In this document: in pieces, positions 12,345-58,290 of the stretch
Numbering within the stretch: the first letter of the stretch is position 1
How the letters are laid out: each line of letters opens with the position of its first letter
Virus record (IMG/VR): IMGVR_UViG_3300017613_001587
Direction: 5' to 3' (one strand)
Length of the DNA: 64,000 bases
Source of the DNA: a virus
Lineage: Duplodnaviria; Heunggongvirae; Uroviricota; Caudoviricetes
Notes under the pieces: model-generated
What the model saw: only the letters and a program-made list of their open reading frames with translations
Told to the model about the DNA's origin: nothing
Database searches by the model: none
Made by a program: the position numbers and the translations under genes

Positions 12345-12950
12345 ATGATACACATACTGAACAAGTTCCAACCGAATCCGTACCAGGGCATGGAAGTGGA
12401 CACAACGTCCAGGGGGAATAACAAGGACCTTAGCCCATTCTACTTAGGTCCGCTTCAAGCATGGGACGGACGTATCGTCCAAAATGTAGAGAATTACTGG
12501 CAGTACTCCAAGGTGTATAAGGAGCATGTCATCCCACCACAAAGTCCTCTCAAGGCTAATGATCCGATGTTCTGGGAACCACACCCACACTACTTTGCAT
12601 GGCGTAATGCTGGCTGGTCCAAGAAGAGAGCTGATCGATACCCCATGGGTAAAGGAGCCAAGCCTCTGTACTCGTATTACAATGAATACCACCTCGATTA
12701 CATAACAGCCCGCAAGCAGATCTACATCCCTGCCTATGCCACATGTGTCATCAAGACACAAAGCTACCGTATGCTGTACGATGCTGTAATGGCAGGTCAG
12801 GACATTGTCCTTCGTGATTTCGATGGGTATGATTATGCCACCATGGGTATGACGCTCACTGAAGTTGTGAATAATCCTAAGAAGACCATGGGCCATGCGT
12901 TTGTACTGGCCATGCTGTTAACCGGTACCATAAACGAGTGTCTGAAATAG
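12345..12950 (+). CDS. hypothetical protein; weak resemblance to NADAR/YbiA-like (DUF1768)
   Basis: SPFYLGPL..WDGR..VENYWQYSKV pattern; low confidence. Confidence 0.4.
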   Translation: MIHILNKFQPNPYQGMEVDTTSRGNNKDLSPFYLGPLQAWDGRIVQNVENYWQYSKVYKEHVIPPQSPLKANDPMFWEPHPHYFAWRNAGWSKKRADRYPMGKGAKPLYSYYNEYHLDYITARKQIYIPAYATCVIKTQSYRMLYDAVMAGQDIVLRDFDGYDYATMGMTLTEVVNNPKKTMGHAFVLAMLLTGTINECLK

Positions 12951-18538: not shown

Positions 18539-19090
18539 ATGACAACAGCATGTTTTACAGGACATCGCAAGATAGGTGCAAACTATTACAATCGCCATAA
18601 TCCCTCACCGGAGTGGCACACGTTGCAGCAGTACATGAACCAGATCGTACAAGGTATGTGCGGTTCACCATACCAGGTGGATCATTACATCAGTGGCCTG
18701 GCAATAGGAGTAGACATGCTGGGGGCTGAGTGTGTAGCCTACGTACGTAGCTTTCTGAAAACACAGGTAAATCTTACCGGCGCCATGCCCTTCCCCTCGC
18801 AGCCCAATAGGTGGCCGGAGCCCACTCGTAATCACTGGGACGATGTGTGTCAGCTATGCAACAAGGTAGTAGCTGTATCAGCTGACCCGTATTCGCCGCA
18901 GAAGATGCAGATCCGTAATCAATGGATGGTGGATCAGTCTCATTATGTCATAGCTGTATGGAATGGTGTAAAGAAAGGCGGTACCTGGAACTGTATGCAA
19001 TATGCCCTGAGTCAAGGCAAATCAGTGCTTATACTCCAACAGACACATGGGGTGTGGGACTGTAAATGGGCAGTAGGAGATCAATCGTGA
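18539..19090 (+). CDS. SLOG-superfamily YpsA/DUF1273-like protein
   Basis: TGHR..ISGLAIGVDMLGAE..LTGAMPFPSQPNRW..YSPQKMQIRNQWMVDQSHYVIAVWNG.KKGGT parallels the block order of B. subtilis YpsA. Confidence 0.5.
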   Translation: MTTACFTGHRKIGANYYNRHNPSPEWHTLQQYMNQIVQGMCGSPYQVDHYISGLAIGVDMLGAECVAYVRSFLKTQVNLTGAMPFPSQPNRWPEPTRNHWDDVCQLCNKVVAVSADPYSPQKMQIRNQWMVDQSHYVIAVWNGVKKGGTWNCMQYALSQGKSVLILQQTHGVWDCKWAVGDQS

Positions 19091-28483: not shown

Positions 28484-28981
28484 ATGAAAGATCCATTGAA
28501 TATTGGCAAATCAGCCGGTACGGGCACTCCCAACATCGGCACTCCGTCTCAGAATACCATCGGCAACAAAGTCTTTGATCTGCACTTTGAGGTCGGTGTT
28601 AACCCTAACCCCATGGGTGGATTCTATGCGTTGACTATCCTTGGGCAAGGGGGTGTAAAATTCGAATCTCAGGGCACTACTCCAGCAGATGCGCTCTCAA
28701 AGATCGTTGTAGATATGGAACAGTCCAATATGTGGCAGCTTATAGTTGGTAACCCTGGCATAAATCAGTTCCCTTTTCCTGCCAATCCGAGAAATGGCAA
28801 ACCGCCTGCTGCTGTACCAGTATCGTCAACCAACAGCGCATATGACCCTAAAGCACCCAAACAACGGCCTTCGGATCTGACACAGGTGACCCACCCTGAC
28901 TGCCAGACGATGTGTCAGTCATATGAACACTTCAAAGCAGCCAAATGCAAAAGCATTTGTGGCTTCCGGGATGGTCTCTAA
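28484..28981 (+). CDS. hypothetical protein
   Basis: TTAGGAGGTCTTACC-ATG. Confidence 0.45.
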   Translation: MKDPLNIGKSAGTGTPNIGTPSQNTIGNKVFDLHFEVGVNPNPMGGFYALTILGQGGVKFESQGTTPADALSKIVVDMEQSNMWQLIVGNPGINQFPFPANPRNGKPPAAVPVSSTNSAYDPKAPKQRPSDLTQVTHPDCQTMCQSYEHFKAAKCKSICGFRDGL

Positions 28982-29337
28982 TGGATATCTATACCGCACA
29001 CTATACATACAGTGGTGAAGATCGTATGGACATCACCGTTAAGGGTAATACCTTTCCAGGCAGTGTCTTTGCCCCCAAGTGGGAGATGGTGAAAGCCCTT
29101 CAAGCCCAGAAGATCGACAACTGGGAGTACACACTCCAGTACATGGGCCTGATGGCAGAGCGATGGTTCCATACCCCCGATGCCACTAATATGGCTATAC
29201 AAACTATGACGGAGAACCGTACGTCATTAACCCTGGTTTGCTTTTGCAAGCCTCAGACATTCTGCCATAGAATACTTGCTGCCCGATTGTTAGAGAGCAT
29301 GGGGCACGGTAAATATCATGGCGAAAGATTAACTTAG
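28981..29337 (+). CDS. hypothetical protein, possibly DUF488-like
   Basis: LTLVCFCKPQTFCHRILAARLL resembles the DUF488 C..C....CHR..L signature. Confidence 0.35.
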   Translation: MDIYTAHYTYSGEDRMDITVKGNTFPGSVFAPKWEMVKALQAQKIDNWEYTLQYMGLMAERWFHTPDATNMAIQTMTENRTSLTLVCFCKPQTFCHRILAARLLESMGHGKYHGERLT

Positions 29338-29354
29338 GGAAGGAGGTGTTAGTT

Positions 29355-29759
29355 ATGAGAGAGATCGAATGCAGGAAAGGATTTACCCTGGTTGAATTGC
29401 TGATCGTTCTTGCAATTCTTGCTATACTGGGTGCTCTGTTTATCCCCATGATTGATGGAAAAGCCCACGGCGCCGAACTCGGCCAATTCCTGTTAGCTGA
29501 GGATGATACCATAGCAGAAGTGGCACATGCTGCCCAAAGTGATCCGCATCAGACACTCACTATTCTGGTGTATGCAAAAACGTGGGACGTTGAGAAGGTA
29601 GATACTCTGCTGGACAAGGCTGCGGCGGTACAGGCTAAACTGATCAGCCACAGGATACCAGTCCACCGTATTAATCTGCATCTTGCCAATGAAGGCGGCC
29701 TGAAGGAAGACGGCACTACCGCACCGGCAAGCGATGGGGTATACATCTCACTGGATTAG
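29355..29759 (+). CDS. type IV pilin-like / pseudopilin protein
   Basis: AAGGAGGTG then ATG. MREIECRKG|FTLVELLIVLAILAILGALFIP is a prepilin motif with Glu at +5. Confidence 0.55.
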   Translation: MREIECRKGFTLVELLIVLAILAILGALFIPMIDGKAHGAELGQFLLAEDDTIAEVAHAAQSDPHQTLTILVYAKTWDVEKVDTLLDKAAAVQAKLISHRIPVHRINLHLANEGGLKEDGTTAPASDGVYISLD

Positions 29760-34698: not shown

Positions 34699-34879
34699 TG
34701 GAACATGGACAACCGTGCTTTGTGGTAAGTGCGACCTAGCACACAAGGTGTTATCAAAACATATCAAACCCCAGTCAAACTGTCCCTACTGCGACGAGTT
34801 TATTCATCTTACCAAATTGGAGGATGACCACGCCGCGGAGAAGAAAGAAGGCTGGAAAGACTGCGCGGAGGTGTCATAA
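34655..34879 (+). CDS. zinc-ribbon protein
   Basis: CGKC..CPYC. Confidence 0.4.
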   Translation: MSPKGDSMSRIVMNDGTWTTVLCGKCDLAHKVLSKHIKPQSNCPYCDEFIHLTKLEDDHAAEKKEGWKDCAEVS

Positions 34880-36216
34880 TGATCGGAACTTACCCACGCA
34901 AAGCCAAGTACACCAAGAAGACTAAGGACTTGCTGAAACTGGACAGCGAGTATATCTCTCCTTCATACACCCGTGACTATCCGTTTATTGTTGCCCATGC
35001 TCGTGATAGAGAGGTAAGAGATATAGATTATAATTTATATCTTGATTTCGGTGCTGGTATCGCTGTTACCTCTACCGGCCACTGTCACCCTGATGTCGTG
35101 CATGCTGTCAAAGAGCAAGCTAATAACTTTCTTCATATGTCTGGCACCGATTTCTTTTACGAGAATCAGATCAAACTGGCCGAGAAGCTCCAAAAGTATT
35201 GTTCTCAAAAGATGCCGGTATTCTATGGCAACTCTGGAGCTGAGGCAGTGGAAGCTGCCATGAAGATAGCCAGATTTCATACCCAGAAGCCTGGGTTTAT
35301 TGCTTTCACCGGCGCCTTCCATGGCCGCACCATGGGCGCCCTCTCCCTGACTGCCAGCAAGGCAGTACAGAGATCACGTTATCTGCCCTTACAGCCGGTA
35401 GCACATGTCCCTTACCCTAATTGTTATGACTGCCCCCTCGGTACCAACTCCCAACGCTGCGATAGTCATGGCAGCGTATGTGTAGACTACATCGACAGTG
35501 AAGTCCTCGGCAGAGGAGCCATGCCTGCATCTGATTGTGCAGCCCTGGTTATGGAACCTATACAGGGAGAGGGCGGTTATATCGTACCGCCACCTTTTTG
35601 GTTCAATGATATCCAAGCGCTTGCTGACTCACATGACCTACTAATTATCTGTGATGAGGTACAGGCAGGTGTTGGTCGTACTGGTGAGTTTTGGGCCCAT
35701 CAGAATTTCACTGGAACTGATGGCGACATCTTCATCCCTGACATTATCTGCTCGGCTAAGGGTATAGCCTCAGGCATGCCTCTTGGCGTCATGATGGCCA
35801 GGGTAGACTTGATGTATGGCTGGAAGCCTGGCTCACATGCCTCAACGTTCGGCGGCAATCCTGTATCCTGTGCAGCTGCCCTTGCTACTATCGATGTAAT
35901 CGAGAAAGAGGGATTGATGGACAATGCTGCTGTCATGGGCGCACACCTGGGTACAATGTTAGACTTAATGTATAAGGCCTGCGGCGTAACAGATAACCCC
36001 CGAGGTATGGGGCTTATGCGTGCTATTGACGTTCTGGGAGAGAACAAAAAGGGTACTTACAGAGACCAGGTTCTGATGAGATGTTTCGAAAAAGGGCTGA
36101 TCCTGCTTGGTTGTGGTAAAAGCGGTATCAGATTTTGCCCTGCACTTAATGTCACCACGGAGGAGGTGGACACCTGTGTACGCATACTCGAGGATACAAT
36201 TAACGAGATCATTTGA
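34879..36216 (+). CDS. class-III PLP-dependent aminotransferase (ArgD/GabT family)
   Basis: GSGAEAVE..LICDEVQAGVGRTG..SAKGIASGMPLG are the class-III aminotransferase motifs. Confidence 0.8.
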   Translation: MIGTYPRKAKYTKKTKDLLKLDSEYISPSYTRDYPFIVAHARDREVRDIDYNLYLDFGAGIAVTSTGHCHPDVVHAVKEQANNFLHMSGTDFFYENQIKLAEKLQKYCSQKMPVFYGNSGAEAVEAAMKIARFHTQKPGFIAFTGAFHGRTMGALSLTASKAVQRSRYLPLQPVAHVPYPNCYDCPLGTNSQRCDSHGSVCVDYIDSEVLGRGAMPASDCAALVMEPIQGEGGYIVPPPFWFNDIQALADSHDLLIICDEVQAGVGRTGEFWAHQNFTGTDGDIFIPDIICSAKGIASGMPLGVMMARVDLMYGWKPGSHASTFGGNPVSCAAALATIDVIEKEGLMDNAAVMGAHLGTMLDLMYKACGVTDNPRGMGLMRAIDVLGENKKGTYRDQVLMRCFEKGLILLGCGKSGIRFCPALNVTTEEVDTCVRILEDTINEII

Positions 36217-37619: not shown

Positions 37620-38099
37620 ATGACTATCCTAAATATTCTTACCGTTGGTAATGACGGCGGTGTACTGTCCACTGAAACAGTAGACCTCACGAAAGCTGAC
37701 ATTCTTTCCTCGAAAATTCAGACGTTGATTGAGGATATGAAAGACACCTGTCATCACGTCGGCGGTGTCGGTTTAGCTGCAAACCAGGTAGGTGAGACTG
37801 CTAAGTTGTTTGTATACAAAGATCCCGCACCCTTCGGCGGATTCAAAACAATTATCAATCCGGTAATTCTTGCCGGAAGGAAAGGTAAGTTTAAGAGCAA
37901 AGGTGAGGGCTGCCTGAGTTTACCTGGCAGGCGCTTCACAGTGGTAAGACAAAAACAGCTGTGGGTCAATGGCCTCGACGAGAAAGGCGAGGAGATAGAA
38001 TTCATGACCAAAAGCAAACAACTCGCCAAGATCATCCAGCACGAAGTTGACCATCTATATGGTAGAACTATAGCTGACAAGGGCAAGGAGGTTACCTAA
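37620..38099 (+). CDS. def: peptide deformylase
   Basis: All three PDF motifs are present: GVGLAANQVG, EGCLSLPG and QHEVDHLYG. Confidence 0.85.
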   Translation: MTILNILTVGNDGGVLSTETVDLTKADILSSKIQTLIEDMKDTCHHVGGVGLAANQVGETAKLFVYKDPAPFGGFKTIINPVILAGRKGKFKSKGEGCLSLPGRRFTVVRQKQLWVNGLDEKGEEIEFMTKSKQLAKIIQHEVDHLYGRTIADKGKEVT

Positions 38100-43404: not shown

Positions 43405-43634
43405 AATCCTCTAGATTTTACCAAACCTGTCTGCAGTTGATAGGGTCTGTTGGTGAGATCATCCTATTCCTCTGCGGTTTTTTCCTAGGCAAGGAAATGT
43501 TCGTGACTGCTCTTATTTTTCTTATTATCCGTATCGTTCATAAAATTATCATTTCCGAGCTTATGTACCGTAGATCTATTGTTGTCGTAAGGGAGGAGGT
43601 TAAACCGGATGTTCAGAATGAACCCTGCCGTTAG
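43401..43634 (+). CDS. membrane protein
   Basis: ORF track. Confidence 0.4.
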   Translation: MKSSRFYQTCLQLIGSVGEIILFLCGFFLGKEMFVTALIFLIIRIVHKIIISELMYRRSIVVVREEVKPDVQNEPCR

Positions 43635-44106
43635 ACAATACCTAATACATAGTTATCTATACTATGAGCTGAATGAGTCTGTTATTTCGGATCATGAATA
43701 TGATCAACTGTGCGTCGAACTGCTAAAGTCTGACGTTGACCATCCTCTGGTTGACAAGGGAAACTTAGAGGCTGGGACTGGTTATAATATAAAGGACTAC
43801 CCGAAGGATATTATAGAGGAAGCTAAAAAGCTCCTCAAGAGTGCCCCTAAACCTGCCGCTGGCACCGATCCTTATGAAAAGAAGCCGTTGATATTCACCG
43901 GTGAACCGGGTGAGACCTATATACTGCTGGGGATGTACATAGACTTCGGTTATGCCAAGGAAAGAGACAGGCAGGATGAGATAAGAACAGAGCTCCAAAA
44001 GCGTTGGGACTCAAAAGACGCCGGTCATCGGGCTTCATTCCAGAAGTACTTCGATTCTTGGGACGAAGGCCTGGAAAGGTTTAAATTAAATGGAAAGAGC
44101 ACCTGA
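43609..44106 (+). CDS. hypothetical protein whose N-terminus resembles the NMN-binding Ia domain of NAD-dependent DNA ligase
   Basis: AVRQYLIHSYLYYELNESVISDHEYDQLCVELLK can be compared with the LigA Ia HxYxYYVxDxPxISDxEYDxLxxEL pattern. Confidence 0.4.
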   Translation: MFRMNPAVRQYLIHSYLYYELNESVISDHEYDQLCVELLKSDVDHPLVDKGNLEAGTGYNIKDYPKDIIEEAKKLLKSAPKPAAGTDPYEKKPLIFTGEPGETYILLGMYIDFGYAKERDRQDEIRTELQKRWDSKDAGHRASFQKYFDSWDEGLERFKLNGKST

Positions 44107-45305: not shown

Positions 45306-45393
45306 GCCCCCGTAGCTCAGTGGAAGGCTAACGCCGCAGAGCATAGGACTTCTAATCCTTGTGCCGCAGGTTCGAATCCTGCCGGGGGTACCA
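45306..45393 (+). tRNA. tRNA-Arg(TCT)-like with a 10-nt insertion (mini-hairpin GGCTAACGCC) in the D-loop; CCA is encoded
   Basis: The cloverleaf was built by hand. The acceptor GCCCCCG/CGGGGGT and T-arm GCAGG-TTCGAAT-CCTGC are identical to the next tRNA. The anticodon loop is CTTCTAA. The D-loop is 20 nt. Confidence 0.55.
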
Positions 45394-45406: not shown

Positions 45407-45484
45407 GCCCCCGTAGCTCAGTGGATACAGAGCGCTCGGCTACGAACCGAGAGGTCGCAGGTTCGAATCCTGCCGGGGGTACCA
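45407..45484 (+). tRNA. tRNA-Arg(ACG)
   Basis: Canonical 78-nt cloverleaf with D-stem GCTC/GAGC, anticodon loop CTACGAA and T-loop TTCGAAT; ACCA at the 3' end. Confidence 0.8.
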
Positions 45485-48387: not shown

Positions 48388-48570
48388 ATGTCGAAAGGAA
48401 TTCAAGCAAAAACTAAACTTCTTAGACAAGTAGAGGAAAGCATTGAAATATGCGAGAACTACCGTGGTACAAAGCCGGACTACTACATAGACCATTGGCA
48501 AGACAAACATATTCTACTACTTGCTCTAAAGAAGACACTAACAGGAGGTAAACCACCATGCAATACCTGA
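48388..48570 (+). CDS. hypothetical protein
   Basis: TAAGGAGGTAAACCACT-ATG. Confidence 0.4.
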   Translation: MSKGIQAKTKLLRQVEESIEICENYRGTKPDYYIDHWQDKHILLLALKKTLTGGKPPCNT

Positions 48571-49322
48571 AAGACTATTTTAAAGACTGGAACTTGTGGG
48601 ATTGGAGCTGGGTTGTCATAGCTTCATTTGTTGGAACCTGGTTAGGACTCAAGTGGGGTGATCCCACTAACCCATGGTACACAGCACTCAGCATTGGTAC
48701 TATGCTGACCGGCCTCTGGTGTGTCATTCTCGTGGCCAAAGGACGTATCTTCAACTATTACCTGGGTGTACTCAACGTGCTTGGATACGCCTACATCGCC
48801 TATGGATATCAGCTCTACGGCGAAGTGCAGCTTAACCTACTGTACTATCTCCCGATGCAGTTCGTAGGGCTATATATCTGGATGAAGAACAAAGACGTTA
48901 GCATACCTGATAAGATCAGAGTAAAGTTCTTGAATAATGGCAACCGATTCTTCGTGGCAGTTGCTTCTGCAACAGCTGTTGTAGGCTACGGTAACTGGTT
49001 GGGGTATCTAGGTGATCCTTTACCTTTTCTGGATGCTACCTCTACTATGCTCTCCATCATCGCCATGATCCTGATGGCCTGGAGATACATGGAGCAGTGG
49101 ATACTGTGGATAGTAGTAGATATAGTATCAGTATGGATGTGGTGGCTTACCATAGATGCTCATGGTAATAGAGATATTACTATGTTAGTCATGTGGATCG
49201 CTTTCCTCATCAATGCTGTCTACGGTTTCATCATGTGGGTCAAGATGTATCAAGAGCAGTGTGCTTTGGATGCTCTGGATGGTGCTCTACAACCTGATTG
49301 GACAAACCGCCATGGCAACTAA
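48558..49322 (+). CDS. pnuC: PnuC-family nicotinamide riboside transporter
   Basis: A 7-8 transmembrane-helix protein with Trp/Tyr-rich motifs (W..W..NPW...; WILWIVVDIVSVWMWW) characteristic of PnuC. Confidence 0.65.
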   Translation: MQYLKDYFKDWNLWDWSWVVIASFVGTWLGLKWGDPTNPWYTALSIGTMLTGLWCVILVAKGRIFNYYLGVLNVLGYAYIAYGYQLYGEVQLNLLYYLPMQFVGLYIWMKNKDVSIPDKIRVKFLNNGNRFFVAVASATAVVGYGNWLGYLGDPLPFLDATSTMLSIIAMILMAWRYMEQWILWIVVDIVSVWMWWLTIDAHGNRDITMLVMWIAFLINAVYGFIMWVKMYQEQCALDALDGALQPDWTNRHGN

Positions 49323-49470
49323 GGATACATTAAAACTAATGGTGCTCCCCAAGGCGGGAGTACCATTTGGTGAGTGGGAGTTCGTCTGGGTCACTAAGGA
49401 CGAGCTCAAAACCTATCAACAACGTGGATACAAACGCGCCAGAAAGGTGAAAGAGAGAGATTATGCTTAA
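49312..49470 (+). CDS. small hypothetical protein
   Basis: Internal ATG overlapping the end of pnuC; weak ribosome-binding site. Confidence 0.25.
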   Translation: MATKDTLKLMVLPKAGVPFGEWEFVWVTKDELKTYQQRGYKRARKVKERDYA

Positions 49471-49843
49471 CTTAGGGCAGGTAGTCTACGATCTAACCAA
49501 TAAAAGGGTTCTGATCTTTGGTGGCATATCAATGCTCCAGAATCAAGAATCAGGTAAATGTCATACCGAAATCAACTTCTTGACGGAAGATCTTGAGCAG
49601 TTGAACTACGGTAAAGACAACCCGACTCCTTTTAAGTATAGGAACTTCGCTGTCGTCGACGGTAAGATCCCATGTGGTGATTTTATGACGGCAGCCGAAC
49701 TCACAGGGCATTTCTTTGGTAATGTAAACTTTGATCTGGCCCTTCAGATAACCGAGAACGTCGAGGCCGTCAAGAGGACCTTCGAGATGGCCAAAGCATT
49801 AACCCCGCCAGAACCGATAGAGGAGGTAGATAGTAATGGCTGA
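49463..49843 (+). CDS. hypothetical protein
   Basis: ORF track. Confidence 0.45.
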   Translation: MLNLGQVVYDLTNKRVLIFGGISMLQNQESGKCHTEINFLTEDLEQLNYGKDNPTPFKYRNFAVVDGKIPCGDFMTAAELTGHFFGNVNFDLALQITENVEAVKRTFEMAKALTPPEPIEEVDSNG

Positions 49844-50018
49844 AAGAGCATGTGGTACATGTAAGGCTGATGAAACATGGTGCTGGATGTTTGTATATAA
49901 CGAGGATGAAAAGAAGTGTCCGTGTGCACATTGTGATAAGAACGACGACTGTGAAGACGTCTTTGGCGACGACGATGCTGAAGGGTGTGCGAAATTCGCA
50001 GCCGCATGGGAGGATTAA
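49836..50018 (+). CDS. small Cys-rich acidic protein
   Basis: ATGG overlap with the upstream stop. Confidence 0.4.
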   Translation: MAERACGTCKADETWCWMFVYNEDEKKCPCAHCDKNDDCEDVFGDDDAEGCAKFAAAWED

Positions 50019-50019
50019 T

Positions 50020-50328
50020 ATGCACCCAGGACTGATAAGGTTAATAGCCTTAGGGACAGTATTCGGCGGTTGGGCAGCCACTGTTGTAGGTGGTTATCTG
50101 CGCGGCCTCAAGCAAACAGAGGGAGGATCTAAAGTGATCACAAGAACGATGTATCATGAGACTAAGGAAGGGGTACATGTACTTGAGTTCCCCGAACTTG
50201 AAACCATTAACCTGGCCGATCCTGAAATTCAAGCACACGCTATCAAGTGGGGGCTGGCTGTTGGTATACCCGGCGGTGAGATTCTCTTCAAAAAGGATGC
50301 TCGCTTCGTCGCAACGGGAGGTAAGTGA
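50020..50328 (+). CDS. membrane-anchored hypothetical protein
   Basis: GGGAGGATTAAT-ATG. Confidence 0.4.
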   Translation: MHPGLIRLIALGTVFGGWAATVVGGYLRGLKQTEGGSKVITRTMYHETKEGVHVLEFPELETINLADPEIQAHAIKWGLAVGIPGGEILFKKDARFVATGGK

Positions 50329-50567
50329 TGAACAAACTGATATCTGGAAAGCTTTTAGTCATCGCCTTAGCAGGCGTCCGGCGCATCGCTGAGAAAGAAG
50401 GCCATGATTTCATGGAACTGGTCGCTAGATCCACCAATAACAAGATGACCCTCGAGGCTATCGAGGAGGCCATCGATGCCTTTGAGGAAACCGGCGGCGA
50501 GGACAACCCCGAAAAGTTCCTTGAATACTTGGAGAAAAACTCCAGTAAGGGAGGAGGATTATCATGA
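50325..50567 (+). CDS. hypothetical protein
   Basis: ATGA overlap with the upstream stop. Confidence 0.4.
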   Translation: MMNKLISGKLLVIALAGVRRIAEKEGHDFMELVARSTNNKMTLEAIEEAIDAFEETGGEDNPEKFLEYLEKNSSKGGGLS

Positions 50568-50755
50568 CGCTCGTTATTATCGCTCTTATGTGTGTTAGTG
50601 TTTTCTGTTTTTACGCAGGCCGTAAATCCGGCGAAACCTCGGGATATTGGAAAGGCCGCGGTACAGGCTGGAAAGACTGTGAGGACATGGTCATTAAACG
50701 CATGGTCGAACACGGCTATGACAAAGAGAAGGTCTGGGAGGATTTAATTCAATGA
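50564..50755 (+). CDS. small membrane protein
   Basis: ATGA overlap with the upstream stop. Confidence 0.4.
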   Translation: MTLVIIALMCVSVFCFYAGRKSGETSGYWKGRGTGWKDCEDMVIKRMVEHGYDKEKVWEDLIQ

Positions 50756-50973
50756 AGAAGACCGGATTCAACGATTATGATAAACAGCGGGAGATCCTCA
50801 AGCGAGTTGAGCTGGAAGAGTATAGATTACGCTGCATTGCAGTTAACATCTGCCCCTGGTGTGGTGAGGATCTTAAGGATATAGAGGCTCTCAGTTCACA
50901 TTTTTGTACGCTGTCCTGCCCCACCAAAAACTGCGAAGGTGCTGAGAGGATAAGAAAGTCTAACCGAGGTTAG
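50752..50973 (+). CDS. zinc-ribbon protein
   Basis: CPWCG..C..C. Confidence 0.4.
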   Translation: MKKTGFNDYDKQREILKRVELEEYRLRCIAVNICPWCGEDLKDIEALSSHFCTLSCPTKNCEGAERIRKSNRG

Positions 50974-50983
50974 GAGGTAAACC

Positions 50984-52060
50984 ATGTACAATATTGGAGT
51001 TGTACCCGGCAAGTTTTTTCCACCACATAGAGGACACCTCAATCAGATCATTCGTGCGGCCACACAATGTAAAAAAGTATATGTAGTGGTATCTGATAAT
51101 GAGGACTTGGCATTGGACAAGTGCCGTAAGGACAACCTACCATTCATTCCTATCAAAACCCGAGCACTCTGGCTATCACTGGAGCTTCAGGGCATAGACC
51201 ACATCGAAGTATTGATGCTGGACGAGACCGGTATTCCTGCCTATCCTGATGGTAGTGTACAATGGTGTCAGATGCTCAGAACACTAATCGCCAACACAAT
51301 ACCTGGCGCCAGTAAGATAGATGTCATATTTGGCGGAGAAACTGAATACCAGGATACATATATGAAGCATATGCCTGGTACCGAGTATGATGTTTATGAC
51401 TACAAGCGTAGCCGTTATCCTGTCAGTGGTACTGAAGTACGTCTGGACTATCTTAAACACTGGGACTATATTCTTGGATCTGCCAGGGGATTCTTTGCCC
51501 GGCGGATACTCGTCACTGGTACTGAAAGCTGTGCCAAAAGCACGCTGGTTAAGTATTTAGCCAAGATCTTCCATACGTCCTGGTCAGAAGAGTACGGTAG
51601 GTACTATTCAGCAGATTATCTGGGAGGAAACGAGGATCTGTTTCAATTAGATGATTTCACACGTGTTGCCCGCATACAAGAGGCTCAGGATGAAGAGGCT
51701 CTGAAGAGTGCTAACCGGATCTGTTTCTTTGATTCCGATGCGGTGGTCACTCAATACTACTGCCATCTCTATACTGGCAGCCAGAACCCTCTGATTGAGA
51801 CGCACGTCAATCCTCAGAAGTACGATCTGGTCCTTATGATGGGCCCAACAGTTGGCTGGGTAGCGGATGGACTTCGCTTCAAGGGTGAGCAGGCGGATAG
51901 GGAGAGGCTGCATAAGAAACTGTTGTATATGTATCTTGACCGCGGCTTCAAGGATAAAATCATCGAGATCAACGATGACAACTATTCTGCTCGTTTAGCC
52001 AGAGCTACTGATTATGCTGATAAACTGGTGGCTGATCGTAAGTACATGAGCCGCTACTGA
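50984..52060 (+). CDS. nadR: NadR-like bifunctional NMN adenylyltransferase / ribosylnicotinamide kinase (no HTH domain)
   Basis: N-terminal GKFFPPHRGH (the nucleotidyltransferase HxGH motif) and C-terminal VTGTESCAKSTL P-loop, as in NadR. Confidence 0.7.
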   Translation: MYNIGVVPGKFFPPHRGHLNQIIRAATQCKKVYVVVSDNEDLALDKCRKDNLPFIPIKTRALWLSLELQGIDHIEVLMLDETGIPAYPDGSVQWCQMLRTLIANTIPGASKIDVIFGGETEYQDTYMKHMPGTEYDVYDYKRSRYPVSGTEVRLDYLKHWDYILGSARGFFARRILVTGTESCAKSTLVKYLAKIFHTSWSEEYGRYYSADYLGGNEDLFQLDDFTRVARIQEAQDEEALKSANRICFFDSDAVVTQYYCHLYTGSQNPLIETHVNPQKYDLVLMMGPTVGWVADGLRFKGEQADRERLHKKLLYMYLDRGFKDKIIEINDDNYSARLARATDYADKLVADRKYMSRY

Positions 52061-52069
52061 GGAGGAACA

Positions 52070-52273
52070 ATGGCAAATAATGAACCGCTATTAGAATCCA
52101 TAACGCACGGTCTTATGAACAATAAGGCCCCATTCGTATACACTGAGGCTGCTGCTCAACCAACTGATCCGCAGAGAAAGAAGATCGGTGTGGCGGCCTT
52201 TCAACTGACTGGTATATGTGTCTATCTGTATGAAGACGGTACCTGGGAGTGGCAAGACACAACTGGAGGATAG
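52070..52273 (+). CDS. hypothetical protein
   Basis: TGAGGAGGAACA-ATG. Confidence 0.4.
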   Translation: MANNEPLLESITHGLMNNKAPFVYTEAAAQPTDPQRKKIGVAAFQLTGICVYLYEDGTWEWQDTTGG

Positions 52274-52274
52274 T

Positions 52275-52535
52275 ATGAAGAAGTTAATTGCTGTATTGTT
52301 AATCCTATTGGTGCTGGCTGCAACACCAGCAGCTGCAAAAGTCTATCTTGTGGTAGCAACACTGGCTAACACCGGTGTCTCATCGTTTACCTTTGATTAT
52401 CATGAGGTAGAGGATATGGATCAGTGCCTGCGTATAGTAGATCGTGCTAAGATCAGTGTAGCGCAGGGCGGAGATGCCGAAGCGTCCATTGCAATTTACT
52501 GTGCGCCGGATAAAAGGGAGAAAGATCTTGACTGA
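52275..52535 (+). CDS. secreted protein with a signal peptide
   Basis: MKKLIAVLLILLVLAATPAAA. Confidence 0.4.
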   Translation: MKKLIAVLLILLVLAATPAAAKVYLVVATLANTGVSSFTFDYHEVEDMDQCLRIVDRAKISVAQGGDAEASIAIYCAPDKREKDLD

Positions 52536-52962
52536 ATATAAACTTGATGAGACGCCGTACCTGACGATAGATGCCATCATTGAGTACAATCGCAAGCTCA
52601 TCATTATCGAGCGTATGCATGACCCTCTGGGCTTAGCCTGGGTAGGTGGCTTCGTCGACCCAGGTGAAACCTGCAAACAGGCAGTGATCAGAGAGTGCGG
52701 TGAGGAAGTCAACCTTAAGGTAGATGTGATTGACCTTATAGGTATCTATGATGATCCTGAACGTGACCCACGAGGTCACCTGGTATCTATTGCTTATCTG
52801 TGCAAGGCTGTGGCGGGCACTCCGCGGCCTCAGGATGCAGAGGTTAAGAAGATTCATCAGGTCTCATTGGATGAAGCCTTGAAACTACATATGATAGCTG
52901 ACCATAGCCAGATGTTACTGGATGCTCTGGAACTGGCCGTGTTCGACAGGAGGCGGATATGA
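52528..52962 (+). CDS. Nudix hydrolase (ADP-ribose pyrophosphatase-like)
   Basis: Nudix box GGFVDPGETCKQAVIRECGEEVNL (GX5EX7REUXEEXGU). The start is uncertain: TTG at 52528 after AAGGGAG, or ATG at 52474. Confidence 0.7.
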   Translation: MTEYKLDETPYLTIDAIIEYNRKLIIIERMHDPLGLAWVGGFVDPGETCKQAVIRECGEEVNLKVDVIDLIGIYDDPERDPRGHLVSIAYLCKAVAGTPRPQDAEVKKIHQVSLDEALKLHMIADHSQMLLDALELAVFDRRRI

Positions 52963-53303
52963 CGGACGAAGAGAAAGAACTGGTTATTGAGAAGCTGCTG
53001 GAGTCCACTGAGATCAGAAAGATCTACGATACTTACATCATCAAAAGTATCCCGTTTGAGACCTGGGTCCGCGACACAACTGATCGTCTCTTAGCCCCAG
53101 CGCCAAACGTCGTGATAGATGCGGATGAAGTATTAGCCAAGGTAATGGGGGATAATAATGATGAAGGTTTTGCTATGATATACGGCACTTGTAAATACTG
53201 TGGTGAAACCGTAGACGACGATAACCTGGCCGAATTGGCCACCGAAGACATGGGTTTGATGTGCGAGCCCTGTTTCAATGAGAAGGAGGTGGGATCATCG
53301 TGA
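52959..53303 (+). CDS. hypothetical acidic protein
   Basis: ATGA overlap with the upstream stop. Confidence 0.45.
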   Translation: MTDEEKELVIEKLLESTEIRKIYDTYIIKSIPFETWVRDTTDRLLAPAPNVVIDADEVLAKVMGDNNDEGFAMIYGTCKYCGETVDDDNLAELATEDMGLMCEPCFNEKEVGSS

Positions 53304-53554
53304 GAGCACCAAACGCTAAACCAGAGCGGAATCGTATGATGCTCAGGCTGGCCATGAGAGGTTACAACTGTAAACAAATATCAAGTGTTTATGGATGTTC
53401 CAGTGGTAATGTGTTTGTTATAGTACGCCGTGAAGGAAATAAAATACTCCAGCCGCTTCGAGATGCCGAGATGAGTGGTATCAAACACAATCTAACTGTA
53501 AGTGAGCTTCGTAAGTTCAGAAACTATATCTTAGGGGAGTTACTCGATGATTAA
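53300..53554 (+). CDS. HTH DNA-binding protein (LuxR / sigma-region-4-like)
   Basis: ERNRMMLRLAMRGYNCKQISSVYGCSSGNVFVIVRR. Confidence 0.4.
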   Translation: MRAPNAKPERNRMMLRLAMRGYNCKQISSVYGCSSGNVFVIVRREGNKILQPLRDAEMSGIKHNLTVSELRKFRNYILGELLDD

Positions 53555-53987
53555 ACTTGGACTCGACCTACACGGCGTGATTGATGCTGCACCTAAGTTC
53601 TTTTCCACTATGGCAGGTCAGATGATAGACCGGGGACATGAGATCTATATTATTACTGGCCGTGAGGACTGTGAGGAGCTGAGGAGAGAGCTTAACGCAT
53701 GCAACATGGACTATAATGGTATACTATCTATTACTACCTATCAAAAGGGTCAGGGCGTTCCTATATCGTACCTTGATGGGCGGCTATCTCAGCCGATGAT
53801 GGACCCACAAATATGGAACCCGACAAAGGCTATGCTGTGCGCCACGGCGGGTATCGACATTATGATCGATGATTCCTCATTATATGAACCCTTCTTCAGG
53901 GACATTAAGACACAGTACATCGTTTATTCCGCTACCGTTATGGAGTGGCTAAACTTTATGTTTTATTGTGGAGGAACACAATTATGA
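53547..53987 (+). CDS. HAD-like hydrolase with an atypical motif I (DLHGV in place of DxDGx)
   Basis: LGLDLHGVID..IITG..MIDDS. Confidence 0.35.
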   Translation: MIKLGLDLHGVIDAAPKFFSTMAGQMIDRGHEIYIITGREDCEELRRELNACNMDYNGILSITTYQKGQGVPISYLDGRLSQPMMDPQIWNPTKAMLCATAGIDIMIDDSSLYEPFFRDIKTQYIVYSATVMEWLNFMFYCGGTQL

Positions 53988-54532
53988 AAAAGGTACTGAT
54001 TGTTGTTGACATGTTAAACGACTTCTGTCATCCGAATGGCGTTCTTGCCAAGTCCATCATAACCGATGAGCTCTATGCCCAGCCTATCCTGAAAAACGTG
54101 GTAGGGCTAGTGGAGATGTTCAGAGGCCAAGGCCTGCCCATCATATGGCTGGCTGATGCTCATGCCGAGGATGACAAAGAATTCGATCGTTTCCCAAAAC
54201 ATGCTGTTAAAGGCACCTGGGGAGCTGAAATCATCGGCGAACTCGGCCCTAAATACGTTGAGAGATCTTCGTCCGAGCTTGTCATCCCTAAAACACGCTA
54301 CAGCGGCTTCTTTGGCACCGACTTGGAATACCAACTGAGTCGACTTGCTCCAGCTGCCGTGGAAGTATGTGGTGTGTGTACCAGCATCTGCGTGATGGAC
54401 ACCGTAGGTGGGCTGGCCAACCGGGATTATGACATTCACGTTGATAAGTCCTGTGTTGCGGATTTTGACCCCGCAGGACATGAGGCTGCTCTGGCACGTA
54501 TGACCAATTTATACGGCGCTACGGTCGTCTAA
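53984..54532 (+). CDS. pncA: isochorismatase-family hydrolase, probably nicotinamidase PncA
   Basis: VLIVVDMLNDF..K.RYSGF..T.L...L..VEVCGVCTSICV is the cysteine-hydrolase fold. It sits immediately upstream of pncB. Confidence 0.6.
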   Translation: MKKVLIVVDMLNDFCHPNGVLAKSIITDELYAQPILKNVVGLVEMFRGQGLPIIWLADAHAEDDKEFDRFPKHAVKGTWGAEIIGELGPKYVERSSSELVIPKTRYSGFFGTDLEYQLSRLAPAAVEVCGVCTSICVMDTVGGLANRDYDIHVDKSCVADFDPAGHEAALARMTNLYGATVV

Positions 54533-54546
54533 GGAGGCTACAGACC

Positions 54547-55749
54547 ATGATTAAGAGTCTACTTGATACCGACTTTTATATCCTAACCATGATGCAGGCG
54601 ATATTCCATCGCTACACGAACGTCGACACCAAGTTCGAGTTTAAATGGCGGAACTGGGATGATATGCATTTCAATATCAAACTGGATGATTTTATCGGCC
54701 GCCTGAAGAAACGCCTGGATGCTCTATGTGAGCTCAGGATCACCAAGAATGAGATAGAGTTCCTGAAGACAGTTCCATTCTTTAAGGATGACTTTATCGA
54801 ATACCTGCGGCTGTTTCAACTTAACCGCGGGTACATTCATCCCTATAACCGGGACGGGCAGCTGGCCATTGATATTCACGGCCCGCTGTTGAATGTCATT
54901 CCGTTTGAGGTGCCGGTACTTGCCACTGTCAGTCAGTTATATACCAGCAGCAACGGCGAGATCGGTTTTAACTGGCAGAAGATGGGGCGAACTCTGCTCC
55001 GTGAGAAGCTTGACTACTTGGATTCCAATTTACATCGTGATATGAACTTCGGATTCGCGGACTTTGGTACTCGTAGGCGTGCCCACTACGATTGGCACAA
55101 AGAGCTTCTCGAAACTATCCTTAGCCATGAGCCTTGCCGTATGGTTGGTACCAGTAATGTGCATTTTGCCATGAAGTATGGTATCAAATATATCGGTACC
55201 ATGGCGCATCTTTGGTTCCAGATCCACCAGCAGTTGGGGCCCCGCCTCATAGACAGCCAACAAGCTGCTCTCCAGGCCTGGGCTAATGAGTATCGCGGTG
55301 AGCTGGGAATAGCTCTGTCAGACACACTCGGCTTTCGTACATTCCTGTGTGATTTTGACAGGTATTTTGCTTTATTATTCGATGGTTGTCGCCACGACTC
55401 TGGTGATCCGATCCGTTGGTGTGAGGCCCTCATCGATCATTACAAGAAGATGAGAATCGATCCCAAAACCAAGACGGCTGTCTTTAGCGATGGGTTGACA
55501 TTTCAGGTTGCTGTTGATTTATTCCTGAGATTTCAGAATCATATCAACACATCGTATGGTATTGGCACGTACTTGACCAATGATTGTGGCTTCAAGCCTC
55601 CACAGATTGTTATCAAGAATACGGAAACAAACGGTAAACCAACGGCCAAGATCTCTGATTCCCAGGGCAAAGGTATGTGTATGGATGATGATTTCGAGGC
55701 CTATCTCATGAAAGTCGTGGAGGAAAAGATCAATGGGTGTTATTCTTAG
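54547..55749 (+). CDS. pncB: nicotinate phosphoribosyltransferase
   Basis: Near-continuous agreement with E. coli PncB: LLDTDFY.LTMMQA, FGTRRR, VGTSN, MAH.WFQ.HQQ, QAAL.AW..EY...LGIALSD, RHDSGDP, VFSD.L, FGIGT.LT.D, KP.AKISDS.GK. Confidence 0.9.
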   Translation: MIKSLLDTDFYILTMMQAIFHRYTNVDTKFEFKWRNWDDMHFNIKLDDFIGRLKKRLDALCELRITKNEIEFLKTVPFFKDDFIEYLRLFQLNRGYIHPYNRDGQLAIDIHGPLLNVIPFEVPVLATVSQLYTSSNGEIGFNWQKMGRTLLREKLDYLDSNLHRDMNFGFADFGTRRRAHYDWHKELLETILSHEPCRMVGTSNVHFAMKYGIKYIGTMAHLWFQIHQQLGPRLIDSQQAALQAWANEYRGELGIALSDTLGFRTFLCDFDRYFALLFDGCRHDSGDPIRWCEALIDHYKKMRIDPKTKTAVFSDGLTFQVAVDLFLRFQNHINTSYGIGTYLTNDCGFKPPQIVIKNTETNGKPTAKISDSQGKGMCMDDDFEAYLMKVVEEKINGCYS

Positions 55750-56653
55750 CGAGATAGTTTCACATGATGTTGATCTCAGAGAGATTTACAATAACGCTAT
55801 AGTCGGGGGTTGTGCTTATCTCAAGGCCAACCCCCTTGTCAGGACACTGATCCTGGGATTCTCTGGTGGTATAGACAGCCTCGTGACCGGCATACTGGCC
55901 CGAGCCGTGGTCGATAAGATGAATAAGAGGGAAGATCACCCTCATGATTACCGCCTTATTGGCTACAGTCTACCCATCATTACCAATGAACAGGACGAGA
56001 TCTATCGAGCCAAGGCTGCCGGTGAAGTTCTTTGTGATCACTTCAGCGAAGTCGATTTATCCAAAGCTTTTATGTCTATATTACCTATCGTGGACAATTC
56101 ATTGTTCTACGAACTTTATGGCCATGAAGCTCCACGTCCCTTAAGCGCACGAATCCGTGGCGGTAATATCAAAGCCAGGCTTCGGATGATGCACCTATAC
56201 GATAAGGCCAGTAAGTATAATGGTATGGTCTTGTCAACAGACAACTACACCGAGTATCTTTTGGGCTTCTGGACACTGCACGGTGATGTGGGTGACTTCG
56301 GCTTCATTCAGGAACTGTGGAAGACCGAGGTCTATGCTCTAGCTGAGTGGATAGGTTGGTCAGAGATGAATCTCCCTGTAATTGAGGAAACACTCGAGGC
56401 CAACGCTACTGACGGTTTAGGTGTATCCAGCGGTGATTTGGCTCAGATATTGCCAGACTGGGAAGGCTCAAGCCGGGATGGGTATGCAGAGGTTGATAGA
56501 CTACTACGTATCTGGGTTAATGGTGAGCTGGATGATGAATGGTTCGATGAGATTCATGAGAGTCCGGTCATCAAACGTCATCGGGCTTCTGCATTTAAAC
56601 GCAATAATCCAGCAAACTTGGACAAACTTCAGCTTATAGGACTCCTTGGTTAA
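55733..56653 (+). CDS. nadE: NH3-dependent NAD+ synthetase
   Basis: PP-loop SGGIDS, the GGN.KAR.RM..LY block and TDN..E...GF.T..GD, as in NadE. Confidence 0.85.
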   Translation: MGVILSEIVSHDVDLREIYNNAIVGGCAYLKANPLVRTLILGFSGGIDSLVTGILARAVVDKMNKREDHPHDYRLIGYSLPIITNEQDEIYRAKAAGEVLCDHFSEVDLSKAFMSILPIVDNSLFYELYGHEAPRPLSARIRGGNIKARLRMMHLYDKASKYNGMVLSTDNYTEYLLGFWTLHGDVGDFGFIQELWKTEVYALAEWIGWSEMNLPVIEETLEANATDGLGVSSGDLAQILPDWEGSSRDGYAEVDRLLRIWVNGELDDEWFDEIHESPVIKRHRASAFKRNNPANLDKLQLIGLLG

Positions 56654-56972
56654 TGTTATGAGAACGACGGTTCACGGTAAAAAGAGAATAAGAAAGCGAA
56701 TCGGGATCAAAAAGAAAGCCGTGGATAGGATGCGAGACGCTGCTTTTAGTAAGGGTGTGACTCACGCCCAGGCCAAAGGCCGTCTTTCCAGGTACTTTGA
56801 TAAACTATTCTTAGAACACGAAACTTGTAATAATATCCGAATGTATGCCAACTATGTTTGGATTTTTGCCGGTGAGACGCTCATTACAGTTTATCCAATA
56901 CCAACCAACCTGAAGAACAGCGCCATAGGTGCCCAAAGAAGGGAGAAAAATCGTGATATCGATAAAAGGTAA
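56646..56972 (+). CDS. hypothetical basic protein
   Basis: ORF track; overlaps the rtcB start. Confidence 0.4.
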   Translation: MVNVMRTTVHGKKRIRKRIGIKKKAVDRMRDAAFSKGVTHAQAKGRLSRYFDKLFLEHETCNNIRMYANYVWIFAGETLITVYPIPTNLKNSAIGAQRREKNRDIDKR

Positions 56973-57186
56973 GTATTCAACAGCGCATATCATGGTGGAT
57001 GATCCTAACCATGTTGTAGATCAAGACGAATATAAACAGATCCTTGAATTTGTCAACTGCCATGTTTTTGTCAATGATTCTCGAATCATGCCTGATTATC
57101 ATTATGGTAAAGGATGTGTTATTGGGTTCACCATGCCCATGACACCTCAGGTTATACCTAATATAGTCGGCGTCGATATTGGCTGA
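56929..57186 (+). CDS. rtcB: RtcB RNA ligase, N-terminal segment, ending at an in-frame TGA
   Basis: MPDYHYGKGCVIG..IVGVDIG-TGA aligns with E. coli RtcB MPDVHLGKGSTIG..AVGVDIG-C78-GM. Confidence 0.75.
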   Translation: MPKEGRKIVISIKGKYSTAHIMVDDPNHVVDQDEYKQILEFVNCHVFVNDSRIMPDYHYGKGCVIGFTMPMTPQVIPNIVGVDIG

Positions 57187-57189
57187 ACT

Positions 57190-58290
57190 ATGCTCTATGT
57201 GAGCTTCCAGAAGTTTCTGGATTTCGATAAAGCACAATGGCTGGTGATAGATCGACAAATTCGTAAACGCATCCCTATGGCACAAAAACATCGAGCCAAT
57301 CCGGCGTACAATAATTTCCATTCTGATTTTCCATGGGGCATAGCAACACTTCAACAGCAGGTTTTTACGTCCAAACTTAACAAGATGTTTGGTACAGATT
57401 ATAAAGGGGTAGATTACAACCCCAAATGGTTCTTTGACCTGTGTGAACGCGTAAACTGTAATCCCACAACAGCCGTTAATTCAATAGGTTCTCTGGGTGG
57501 GGGTAATCATTTCATTGAGTTCAGCAATTCAGAACAGACGGGCAACACTGGCGTAACTATCCATTCTGGTTCAAGAAATCTGGGTCTGAAGATTGCCAAC
57601 TACTGGCAGAGAAAAGCAGTAGCCAACCTGAAGCATCGATACCAGGTTGATTTCCAGAACACTATCAAGGAGATCAAAGCTACTCAGCCCCAGGAGAAGT
57701 GGGATAAACTCATCAAAGCTGCTAAACTGCCGCCTACTAAGACTGGCCTGGAGTATCTCGAAGGTGAGGACTGGTACGGTTACCTTCATGAGATGAATTT
57801 TGCCCAGATCTATGCCCAGGAAAACGTCGCTACTATGGCGTCTGTCATCCTGACCACTCTGAATCTACCAGCGGCGTTGATGATGTCGCCGGACAACGTG
57901 CATACCACACATAATTATATCAGCTTTGAGGACTTTATTGTCCGTAAAGGAGCTGTTCGTTCTATAAAGGGTGAAAAAATGCTGATTCCCTTTAATATGG
58001 AAGATGGTATCTTGATATGCGAAGGTAAGAGCAACGAAGAGTGGTACCAGTCGGCTCCGCACGGTGCGGGGCGTCTATTCGGCCGTGGTGAGATGAAGCG
58101 AGACTCGTCGATCAGCACCAAGGCCATCAAGAAACGGATGCAAGATAAAGGCCTTATCACCAGCGTAGTTCCAAAAGATGAGGTTAAAGAAGCCTACAAA
58201 GACCCTGCATTCATTGAGGGGGCGATTGCTCCTACTGCGACTATCGTTGATCGGCTTAAACCTATCATAACATTGAAGGCTAAAGACTAA
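57190..58290 (+). CDS. rtcB: RtcB RNA ligase, C-terminal segment, in the same frame
   Basis: SLGGGNHFIE, IHSGSRNLG and APHGAGR are the RtcB active-site motifs. Confidence 0.8.
   Translation: MLYVSFQKFLDFDKAQWLVIDRQIRKRIPMAQKHRANPAYNNFHSDFPWGIATLQQQVFTSKLNKMFGTDYKGVDYNPKWFFDLCERVNCNPTTAVNSIGSLGGGNHFIEFSNSEQTGNTGVTIHSGSRNLGLKIANYWQRKAVANLKHRYQVDFQNTIKEIKATQPQEKWDKLIKAAKLPPTKTGLEYLEGEDWYGYLHEMNFAQIYAQENVATMASVILTTLNLPAALMMSPDNVHTTHNYISFEDFIVRKGAVRSIKGEKMLIPFNMEDGILICEGKSNEEWYQSAPHGAGRLFGRGEMKRDSSISTKAIKKRMQDKGLITSVVPKDEVKEAYKDPAFIEGAIAPTATIVDRLKPIITLKAKD

Follow-up and report, generated by a model that had tools for sequence, protein, structure and literature searches.

The subject of this report is a gene cluster at positions 48558-56653 of a 64,000-nucleotide stretch of DNA, called the window, from IMG/VR virus record IMGVR_UViG_3300017613_001587. 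The cluster encodes seven proteins related to nicotinamide adenine dinucleotide (NAD+), namely PnuC, a NadR-like protein, a Nudix hydrolase, a HAD-like protein, PncA, PncB and NadE. Its composite architecture, which is conserved in related metagenomic phages, is new. The cluster is not a categorically new solution, as it combines known phage systems, a NARP3-type pair and a Preiss-Handler entry module lacking NadD, with a new accessory enzyme.

NAD+ depletion is a widespread bacterial anti-phage defence, and nicotinamide and ADP-ribose are the two products of NADase effectors. The cluster probably serves a large uncultured phage as a composite module for NAD+ replenishment, and it would have three parts. 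In the first part, PnuC would import nicotinamide riboside, and the NadR-like protein would phosphorylate it to nicotinamide mononucleotide (NMN) and adenylylate NMN to NAD+. In the second part, PncA would convert nicotinamide to nicotinate, and PncB would combine nicotinate with phosphoribosyl pyrophosphate (PRPP) to give nicotinate mononucleotide (NaMN). Host NadD would then make nicotinate adenine dinucleotide (NaAD), which the phage NadE would amidate to NAD+. In the third part, the Nudix hydrolase would split ADP-ribose into AMP and ribose-5-phosphate, the latter of which the host would turn into PRPP for PncB; a HAD-fold enzyme with a DxH motif that accompanies PncA-PncB would also belong here. 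The most likely purpose would be to keep NAD+ levels up during infection against NAD+-depleting defences of the SIR2, TIR, DSR and SEFIR types. The model builds on the observed gene identities, on catalytic motifs and gene order that are conserved, and on the fact that the NadR-like protein is a close homologue of a proven NARP3 enzyme. We infer the substrates of the Nudix and HAD-like proteins, the reliance on host NadD and Prs, the flux and the physiological purpose.

Organization of the cluster and its two proposed NAD+ branches

All seven open reading frames (ORFs) are present at the coordinates given in the earlier note, within about 8 kb, and lie on the plus strand. They encode a PnuC-type nicotinamide riboside transporter (48558..49322, 254 aa), a NadR-like bifunctional NMN adenylyltransferase (NMNAT) and ribosylnicotinamide kinase (RNK) without a helix-turn-helix (HTH) domain (50984..52060, 358 aa), a stand-alone Nudix hydrolase that is probably an ADP-ribose pyrophosphatase (52474..52962, 162 aa), a capless HAD-fold protein with DxH as motif I (53547..53987, 146 aa), a PncA-type nicotinamidase (53984..54532, 182 aa from the ATG at 53984, with a 4-nt overlap with the stop of the HAD-like gene), the nicotinate phosphoribosyltransferase (NAPRTase) PncB (54547..55749, 400 aa) and the NH3-dependent NAD synthetase NadE (55733..56653, 306 aa). 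Six of these identities were borne out by profile search and the HAD-like one by structure prediction alone. From the Nudix gene to the RtcB gene downstream of NadE, the genes are co-directional with overlaps or gaps of at most 14 nt, save for one 243-nt overlap upstream of RtcB that is a product of the mechanical ORF call. The gene order is kept in five divergent relatives, the metagenomic contigs L016, L018, L020, L023 and L025, whose PncB proteins are 65-79% identical. Because of this tight packing and the same order in divergent relatives, the clustering is not due to chance. No riboswitch or other RNA family was found in or around the cluster by Rfam scans at the gathering thresholds and at E<=1.

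The relatives differ in how much of the cluster they carry. L018 has HAD-PncA-x-PncB and L016 has PnuC-x-x-NadR-x-HAD-PncA-PncB. NadE is present in L020 (HAD..PncA-x-x-PncB-NadE) and in L025 (NadR..Nudix..HAD-x-PncA-PncB-NadE-RtcB), and L023 has both NadD and NadE (HAD..PncA-x-PncB-NadD-NadE). In this clade the DxH HAD-like gene is a constant partner of PncA-PncB and forms part of the conserved core, and NadE and NadD are accessory. Beyond the clade, the PncA/PncB/NadE trio stands alongside a T4-type Phage_30_3 gene on contig L024, and IMG/VR contigs whose PncB is just 33-39% identical also have PncB and NadE together, one of them with PncA too.

PnuC matches PF04973 (5.5e-43), TIGR01528 (123 bits against a cut-off of 42) and phrog_1880 (3e-52), and it aligns with PnuC of N. 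mucosa (4QTN) over residues 6-232 with an E value of 1e-41. The family matched is thus PF04973 and not PF02447, the accession that the earlier note had named for PnuC. The NadR-like protein matches AAA_28 (6.8e-28), a cytidylyltransferase N-domain and phrog_3462 (3e-94). It aligns with the NadR profile PRK08099 (3e-66) over profile positions 64-408 of 411, and since the alignment starts only at position 64, the protein lacks the HTH domain. Its best match among solved structures is Bas30_86 of NARP3 (9X6F/9X6H, E 1.2e-68). By reading of the alignment, nine of the 14 residues named in the NARP3 paper are identical (K10, F11, S37, E80, P84, G89, F110, R167 and D275), three are replaced conservatively (D115E, K168R and E230D) and two are changed (S112G and K163G).

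NARP3, a system of T5-like phages of Enterobacteriaceae, consists of Bas30_87 (PnuC) and Bas30_86 (NadR-like) (Yan et al., Sci Adv 2026, PMC13464706). Work of August 2026 showed that it turns imported nicotinamide riboside into NAD+ and rescues phages from Sir2-HerA and DSR1 (PMC13464706). The pair of PnuC and HTH-less NadR had already been predicted in 2024. The window likewise has a PnuC-type transporter and an HTH-less NadR-like NMNAT/RNK in which most of the tested catalytic residues, those that NARP3 cannot lose by mutation and still function, are kept. However, NARP3 is a two-gene operon, whereas here the two genes lie 1.66 kb apart within a larger cluster with PncA, PncB, NadE, Nudix and HAD-like genes. 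The phage is also unrelated, its host is probably not an enterobacterium and the system is known here from sequence alone. As a nicotinamide riboside transporter, PnuC belongs to the nicotinamide riboside branch with NadR and not to the deamidated branch. Three phage routes of NAD+ reconstitution, NARP1 to NARP3, have been shown experimentally. The earlier view that the known routes are just NadV plus NMNAT or Adps/Namat is out of date, because PnuC plus a NadR-like protein is the published NARP3 system (PMC13464706).

For the deamidated branch, the families proposed earlier (PF00857 for PncA, PF04095 for PncB and PF02540 for NadE) were all matched, as were the NadR domains of the other branch. 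PncA matches PF00857 (isochorismatase) at 2.3e-37. Its top PDB matches, 6a8l and 5zn8 (1e-29), were deposited just as 'isochorismatase' and are followed by a carbamoylsarcosine-amidase-related protein and a cysteine hydrolase. The nicotinamidases of S. pneumoniae (3o90, 7.7e-20), S. mutans (3s2s) and P. horikoshii (1ilw) come next. In the best match shown, the motifs VVDMLNDF (Asp), DAH...FPKH (metal site), KTRYS (Lys) and CTSICV (Cys) are aligned. PncB matches TIGR01514 (1.6e-117, 393 bits against a cut-off of 270), PRK05321 (471 bits against 379), PF04095 and PF17767. NadE matches TIGR00552 (98 bits against a cut-off of 64) and PF02540 (7.5e-30) and has an SGGIDS P-loop. The NadE clade is made up almost wholly of metagenomic sequences, several of them on phage-like contigs.

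PncB has homologues at identities between 87% and about 60%. The host probably belongs to the Desulfobacterota, because the few named homologues at about 60% are proteins of Desulfobacterales metagenome-assembled genomes (MAGs), some of them on 6-Mb contigs. PncB is rare in sequenced phages, as only 13 of 50,697 records match, and at least two of these, Acinetobacter records, are bacterial DNA. The PncB of 'Acinetobacter phage MD-2021a' was rejected as a phage gene since the sequences are bacterial chromosome fragments. L039 (CAKLQH020000008.1), filed as phage, looks like a fragment of a bacterial chromosome, with serB, psd and phoBR around pncB. Phage Atu_ph07 has PncB near a cytidylyltransferase gene and a Nudix gene.

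Clusters of pncB, nadD and nadE, and also of pnuC and nadR, have been catalogued in 174 'NAD-jumbo phages', with pncA mentioned (Li et al., Microbiome 2024, PMC11662467). It had been suggested that a PncA-PncB-NadE deamidated route with its own transporter would be a distinct solution. The idea is not new (PMC11662467) and PnuC serves the other branch, but the combination is new. No paper that tested a phage PncA-PncB-NadE route experimentally was found in the literature searches. Like pncB-nadD-nadE of Kuafu_71, the window has phage pncB and nadE (and pncA) in a cluster for making NAD+ from nicotinate or nicotinamide, and both are predicted from sequence. The window differs in that it has no nadD and adds the NARP3-type pair, a stand-alone Nudix gene and the DxH HAD-like gene. 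The relative L023, with PncA-PncB-NadD-NadE, is a closer analogue of Kuafu_71 than the window is.

Other systems share some of these features. NadV and NatV of KVP40, which convert nicotinamide to NMN and then to NAD+, are called NARP2 in PMC13464706. Both KVP40 and the window combine nicotinamide salvage with a Nudix ADP-ribose pyrophosphatase, fused in NatV and stand-alone here, and KVP40 also has a DxH HAD-like homologue near natV. The KVP40 route is amidated, with NadV making NMN directly, whereas the window has the deamidated set PncA, PncB and NadE. NadV was not found in the window, where the sole phosphoribosyltransferase is PncB, which is a NAPRTase by TIGR01514 and reaches just 1.6e-8 against the phage NAMPT family phrog_448. 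NARP1 (Adps plus Namat; Osterman et al. 2024) has the same purpose, that is, NAD+ is rebuilt from NADase products. Pfam scans of the window ORFs found neither a PRPS-like match nor a second match to the NAPRTase/NAMPT family, as Adps and Namat would give. An extension of NARP1 with a phosphatase that acts against aRES (bioRxiv 10.64898/2026.01.28.702374) is a precedent for a phosphatase in a phage NAD+ operon.

The Nudix hydrolase and the DxH HAD-fold protein

The Nudix hydrolase matches PF00293 (1.4e-17) and its GX5EX7REUXEEXGU box is intact, as can be read in GGFVDPGETCKQAVIRECGEEVNL. Its best NCBIfam matches are the Nudix halves of NadM-Nudix proteins, and its nearest relatives also include the Nudix half of NrtR. 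The PDB matches are 2yyh (1e-22), NadM-Nudix (2qjt/2qjo) and NrtR-like proteins (3gz8/2fml). The substrate is probably ADP-ribose, since NadM-Nudix and NrtR carry ADP-ribose-binding Nudix domains, which are those that the protein most resembles. A route from ADP-ribose back to NAD+, as had been proposed, is not a direct one, as the enzyme would yield AMP and ribose-5-phosphate.

The fold of the HAD-like protein was assigned by structure comparison alone, and a profile search of the family against PDB sequences gave no match. In the predicted fold, motifs II (T/S), III (K) and IV (DD) are present. In HAD phosphatases motif I is DxD, which provides the nucleophile and, at +2, the general acid/base Asp. 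The HAD-like family has instead an invariant G-[LI]-D-x-H-G-V, of which the part G-[LI]-D-x-H is kept in all of 26 close homologues, 8 distant lineages and 6 fusion proteins. All alignments have the Lys and DD motifs unchanged, and the Thr of motif II is invariant in the close family. It follows from the invariant DxH that this is a HAD-fold protein but not an ordinary HAD phosphatase.

A profile search with the HAD-like family gave 491 cluster representatives at E<=1e-10. Homologues occur in 49 records of KVP40-like Vibrio phages. In KVP40 itself, KVP40.0164 (L026 4764-5390) is 37% identical and lies two genes downstream of natV. Another homologue of this group is ORF97 of ValKK3 (L027 3764-4390). 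The 642-kb phage LR756502 has a homologue immediately before a Nudix gene, and Vibrio phage 2.275.O has one with a Nudix gene 4 kb upstream and a Macro gene 3 kb downstream. Ten multidomain members were scanned, and six of them are fused to NAD or ADP-ribose domains: three to NadD (in either order), two to an NrtR winged helix (one of which also scores as Nudix) and one to Macro and NADAR. The DxH motif is kept in all six. By its neighbourhoods and fusions, a tie of the HAD-like family to NAD+/ADP-ribose metabolism is well supported. In the 2022 survey of viral NAD+-ADPr systems the family is not described in NAD+ synthesis.

GenBank names the homologue of the KVP40 group 'nicotinate-nucleotide adenylyltransferase' (phi-ST2, R10Z, R11Z, ValKK3 and phi-Grn1). 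No adenylyltransferase domain was found in this homologue in Pfam, and the name may have been carried over from the NadD-HAD fusion proteins. A second, divergent DxH paralogue (L021 12645-13151, phrog_13623 1.1e-6) lies on the same contig about 1.9 kb past the end of the window, some 12 kb downstream of the first. Scaffold MT836116.1 (L030), which carries a homologue, was not accepted as phage because it looks bacterial; its ORFs, read by eye, resemble penicillin-binding protein, release factor 2 and an autotransporter. With such bacterial fragments filed as phage (L039 and L030), the counts of 'phage' PncB and HAD-like proteins are slightly inflated.

It has been considered, tentatively and at somewhat less than even chances, that the DxH HAD-fold protein is an unrecognised, dedicated NAD+/ADP-ribose enzyme that phages add to differing salvage routes, PncA/PncB here and NadV/NatV in KVP40, and that together with PncA-PncB-(NadD)-NadE it makes up a fourth, deamidated route against NADase immunity. 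Its activity may be that of a phosphatase on a phosphate derived from ADP-ribose or NADP, of a pyridine mononucleotide 5'-nucleotidase, or of a pyrophosphatase that pulls the steps that release pyrophosphate.

Purpose, the NadD step and phage origin

Several points weigh against the module as proposed above. As NadD is missing, the phage genes by themselves cannot sustain the deamidated branch. The Pfam scans that did not find NadD covered the plus-strand ORFs of the window with 60 aa or more and the next 10 kb; roughly 34 kb of the 108.5-kb source contig lies outside this range. No NCBIfam equivalog for PncA is reached above its cut-off, which is why its substrate is given here by inference. 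PnuC and the NadR-like gene are not adjacent as in canonical NARP3 but stand on the same strand at a distance of 1,661 bp, with six small ORFs in the interval; the relative L016 has two small ORFs between the two genes. A scan for consensus promoters and terminators was uninformative, with 27 promoter-like sites against 18.7 +/- 4.5 expected. The counter-defence role is argued by analogy only. Genes for capsid, portal, terminase or tail proteins were not identified in the 64-kb window or within 10 kb downstream of it, and the phage status is drawn from PHROG matches, the density and strand bias of the genes, the tRNAs and the relatives.

With regard to purpose, the cluster could also be a general auxiliary metabolic module that would supply NAD+ for replication in a slow-growing or nutrient-limited host or in a host that lacks salvage. 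This is the main alternative and is less likely than a counter-defence role. Li et al. have read phage NAD+ clusters mainly in this way, with complementarity to host pathways (PMC11662467). A class-III aminotransferase and a peptide deformylase are also encoded in the window, and an anti-defence gene directed at a specific NADase was not identified there. On the other hand, the nearest characterised pair, NARP3, works as counter-defence (PMC13464706). PncA and the Nudix enzyme would act on exactly the two NADase products, and the putative host lineage already has PncB, as judged by the Desulfobacterales MAG homologues at about 60%, so complementation is not obviously needed. The metabolic and counter-defence roles are not mutually exclusive.

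The absence of NadD raises the question of how NaMN is converted to NaAD. The route from nicotinamide had been called essentially complete, and this does not hold, as NadD was not found within the range given above. The sole cytidylyltransferase-like match among the window ORFs is the N-domain of the NadR-like protein. The step must come from the host or from a putative activity of another phage enzyme. It could be that the branch is independent of NadD, with NadE as an NMN synthetase that converts NaMN to NMN for the NadR-like NMNAT, or with an NMNAT that accepts NaMN. PncB, NadE and an NMNAT are present without NadD in both the window and L025, and NadE, PncB and NadR also occur together on the unrelated IMG/VR contig L006. 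There is a precedent in Francisella tularensis, where a NadE homologue is adapted to NMN synthesis and NadM replaces NadD (PMC3376133). That route has PncB, a NadE-type NMN synthetase and NadM, and the window is like it in having PncB, a NadE homologue and an NMN adenylyltransferase and no NadD; it differs in that nothing points to a preference of the phage NadE for NaMN, and its orthologue in L023 adjoins NadD.

This NadD-independent reading is improbable. L023 has a genuine NadD (TIGR00482, 120.8 bits against a cut-off of 112.45) between PncB and NadE, and the NadE proteins of the window and of L023, from modules without and with NadD, share all 73 invariant columns and show no sign of a shift in specificity. 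The window NadE is also nearer to P. aeruginosa NadE (4xfd, 1.3e-17) than to the Francisella NMN synthetase (3fiu, just 3e-10). On these three grounds it was judged unlikely that NadE is an NMN synthetase, and the enzyme would be an ordinary NAD synthetase that acts after NadD, with the NadD step left to the host. In L016 and L018, PncA-PncB occur without NadE in the 10 kb read on each side, which indicates that reliance on host enzymes is normal in this clade. On L024, none of the genes called within 8 kb to either side of NadE, PncA and PncB is an adenylyltransferase.

JGI metagenome contigs with lengths of 102 kb and, as calculated from coordinates, 108.5 kb also hold the window sequence, and a second sample holds a strain that is 99.7% identical. 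The GC content is 44-57%. The window has 151 ORFs, mostly small and essentially all on one strand, with a coding density of 93%; most have no Pfam or PHROG match. The PHROG matches are PnuC, NadR, single-stranded DNA-binding protein, phosphoesterases, RtcB, COOH-NH2 ligase and lytic transglycosylase. Together with the homologues in KVP40-like and huge phages, they point to a large phage. When the cluster and 25 kb of the window were compared by megablast with the 50,697 phage records, there was no match, and hence there is no close cultured relative.

It is very improbable that the region is bacterial chromosome or another mobile element with NAD salvage genes as ordinary housekeeping, for although virion and packaging genes were not identified in the range stated, the megablast was without match and some PncB-bearing 'phage' records are bacterial DNA, the dense set of small and mostly matchless ORFs, essentially all on one strand, with two tRNA-Arg genes, the PHROG matches, the lack of ribosomal or core housekeeping genes in the window, the HTH-less NadR-like protein, which resembles phage versions, and the HAD-like homologues in KVP40-like and huge phages all speak for a phage.

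Neighbouring genes and significance

The RtcB gene that follows the cluster (56929-58290) is interrupted once, by an in-frame TGA (57184-57186) that stands precisely where the DIGCGM motif has its metal-binding Cys. This codon was found in two samples and in three more divergent relatives at 74-76% identity, and it is conserved in five related sequences from different samples. Besides the window gene, the comparison took in L025 (5281-6621), L032, L033/L034 and L036. An invariant hairpin with a 6-bp stem, UCCAGA-AGUU-UCUGGA (57206-57221), always lies 3' of the TGA. The sole homologue that encodes Cys (TGT), L036, has the same peptide, and synonymous changes break the stem. Among the four TGA-containing genes just 22.5% of the conserved degenerate codons are identical in all, and the longest identical run is the hairpin. 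Both halves of RtcB are under purifying selection. TGA is an ordinary stop in 49 of the 151 window ORFs. Deltaproteobacteria are the most selenoprotein-rich bacteria. In the literature searches RtcB and selenocysteine (Sec) were found together only for an engineered Sec98 RtcB and no natural Sec-RtcB was found. The phage RtcB is a good candidate for a phage-encoded selenocysteine protein with an element like the selenocysteine insertion sequence (SECIS).

Two adjacent tRNA-Arg genes (45306-45390 and 45407-45484) have the same acceptor stem and T-arm. tRNA-Arg(ACG) was found by both ARAGORN and Rfam. The other was found by Rfam only (60.9 bits); it was considered as a tRNA-Sec and rejected, as it is a tRNA-Arg(UCU) whose D-loop contains a 15-nt insertion.

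Some other genes may touch on the NAD+ theme. The stand-alone LigA-Ia-like protein suggested earlier was confirmed as a solo Nlig-Ia NAD+-binding domain protein (43609..44106, plus strand, PF22745 2.9e-14). It lies 4.5 kb upstream of the cluster and the link is thematic; solo Nlig-Ia proteins have been reported from 81 phages (PMC9503650). The suggestion of a 'NADAR-like' protein at 12345-12950 was not upheld, as there is just a partial match to DUF6939 and no NADAR or PDB match; no literature on DUF6939 was found. A YpsA-SLOG protein is encoded at 18539-19090 (PF06908 1.3e-11), and this superfamily was counted among the ADP-ribose-processing domains in the 2022 viral survey. Further metabolic or host-takeover genes are the class-III aminotransferase (34879-36216, 1.4e-102) and the peptide deformylase (37620-38099, 1.2e-32). 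An 'active DUF488-N3a' protein is encoded at 28945-29337 (PF22751 3.2e-8). The ORFs at 950-1621 and 29346-29759 match PF07963, a prokaryotic N-terminal methylation motif of the type IV pilin kind, at about 3e-7, which is unusual for a phage accessory region. Downstream of the window, on L021 18824-20584, there is a pair of a COOH-NH2 ligase and a glutamine amidotransferase that is syntenic in the relative L016 too.

The cluster is a candidate for a fourth phage route of NAD+ reconstitution, one that would start with the deamidation of nicotinamide released by NADases. One phage has both the deamidated set and a NARP3-type pair, which suggests that phages combine several routes. The series of relatives, from HAD-PncA-PncB to the full PncA-PncB-NadD-NadE, shows which steps are worth encoding for phages. 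The DxH HAD-like family, which is present in the model phage KVP40, may be a lead to a missing activity in NAD+/ADP-ribose metabolism.

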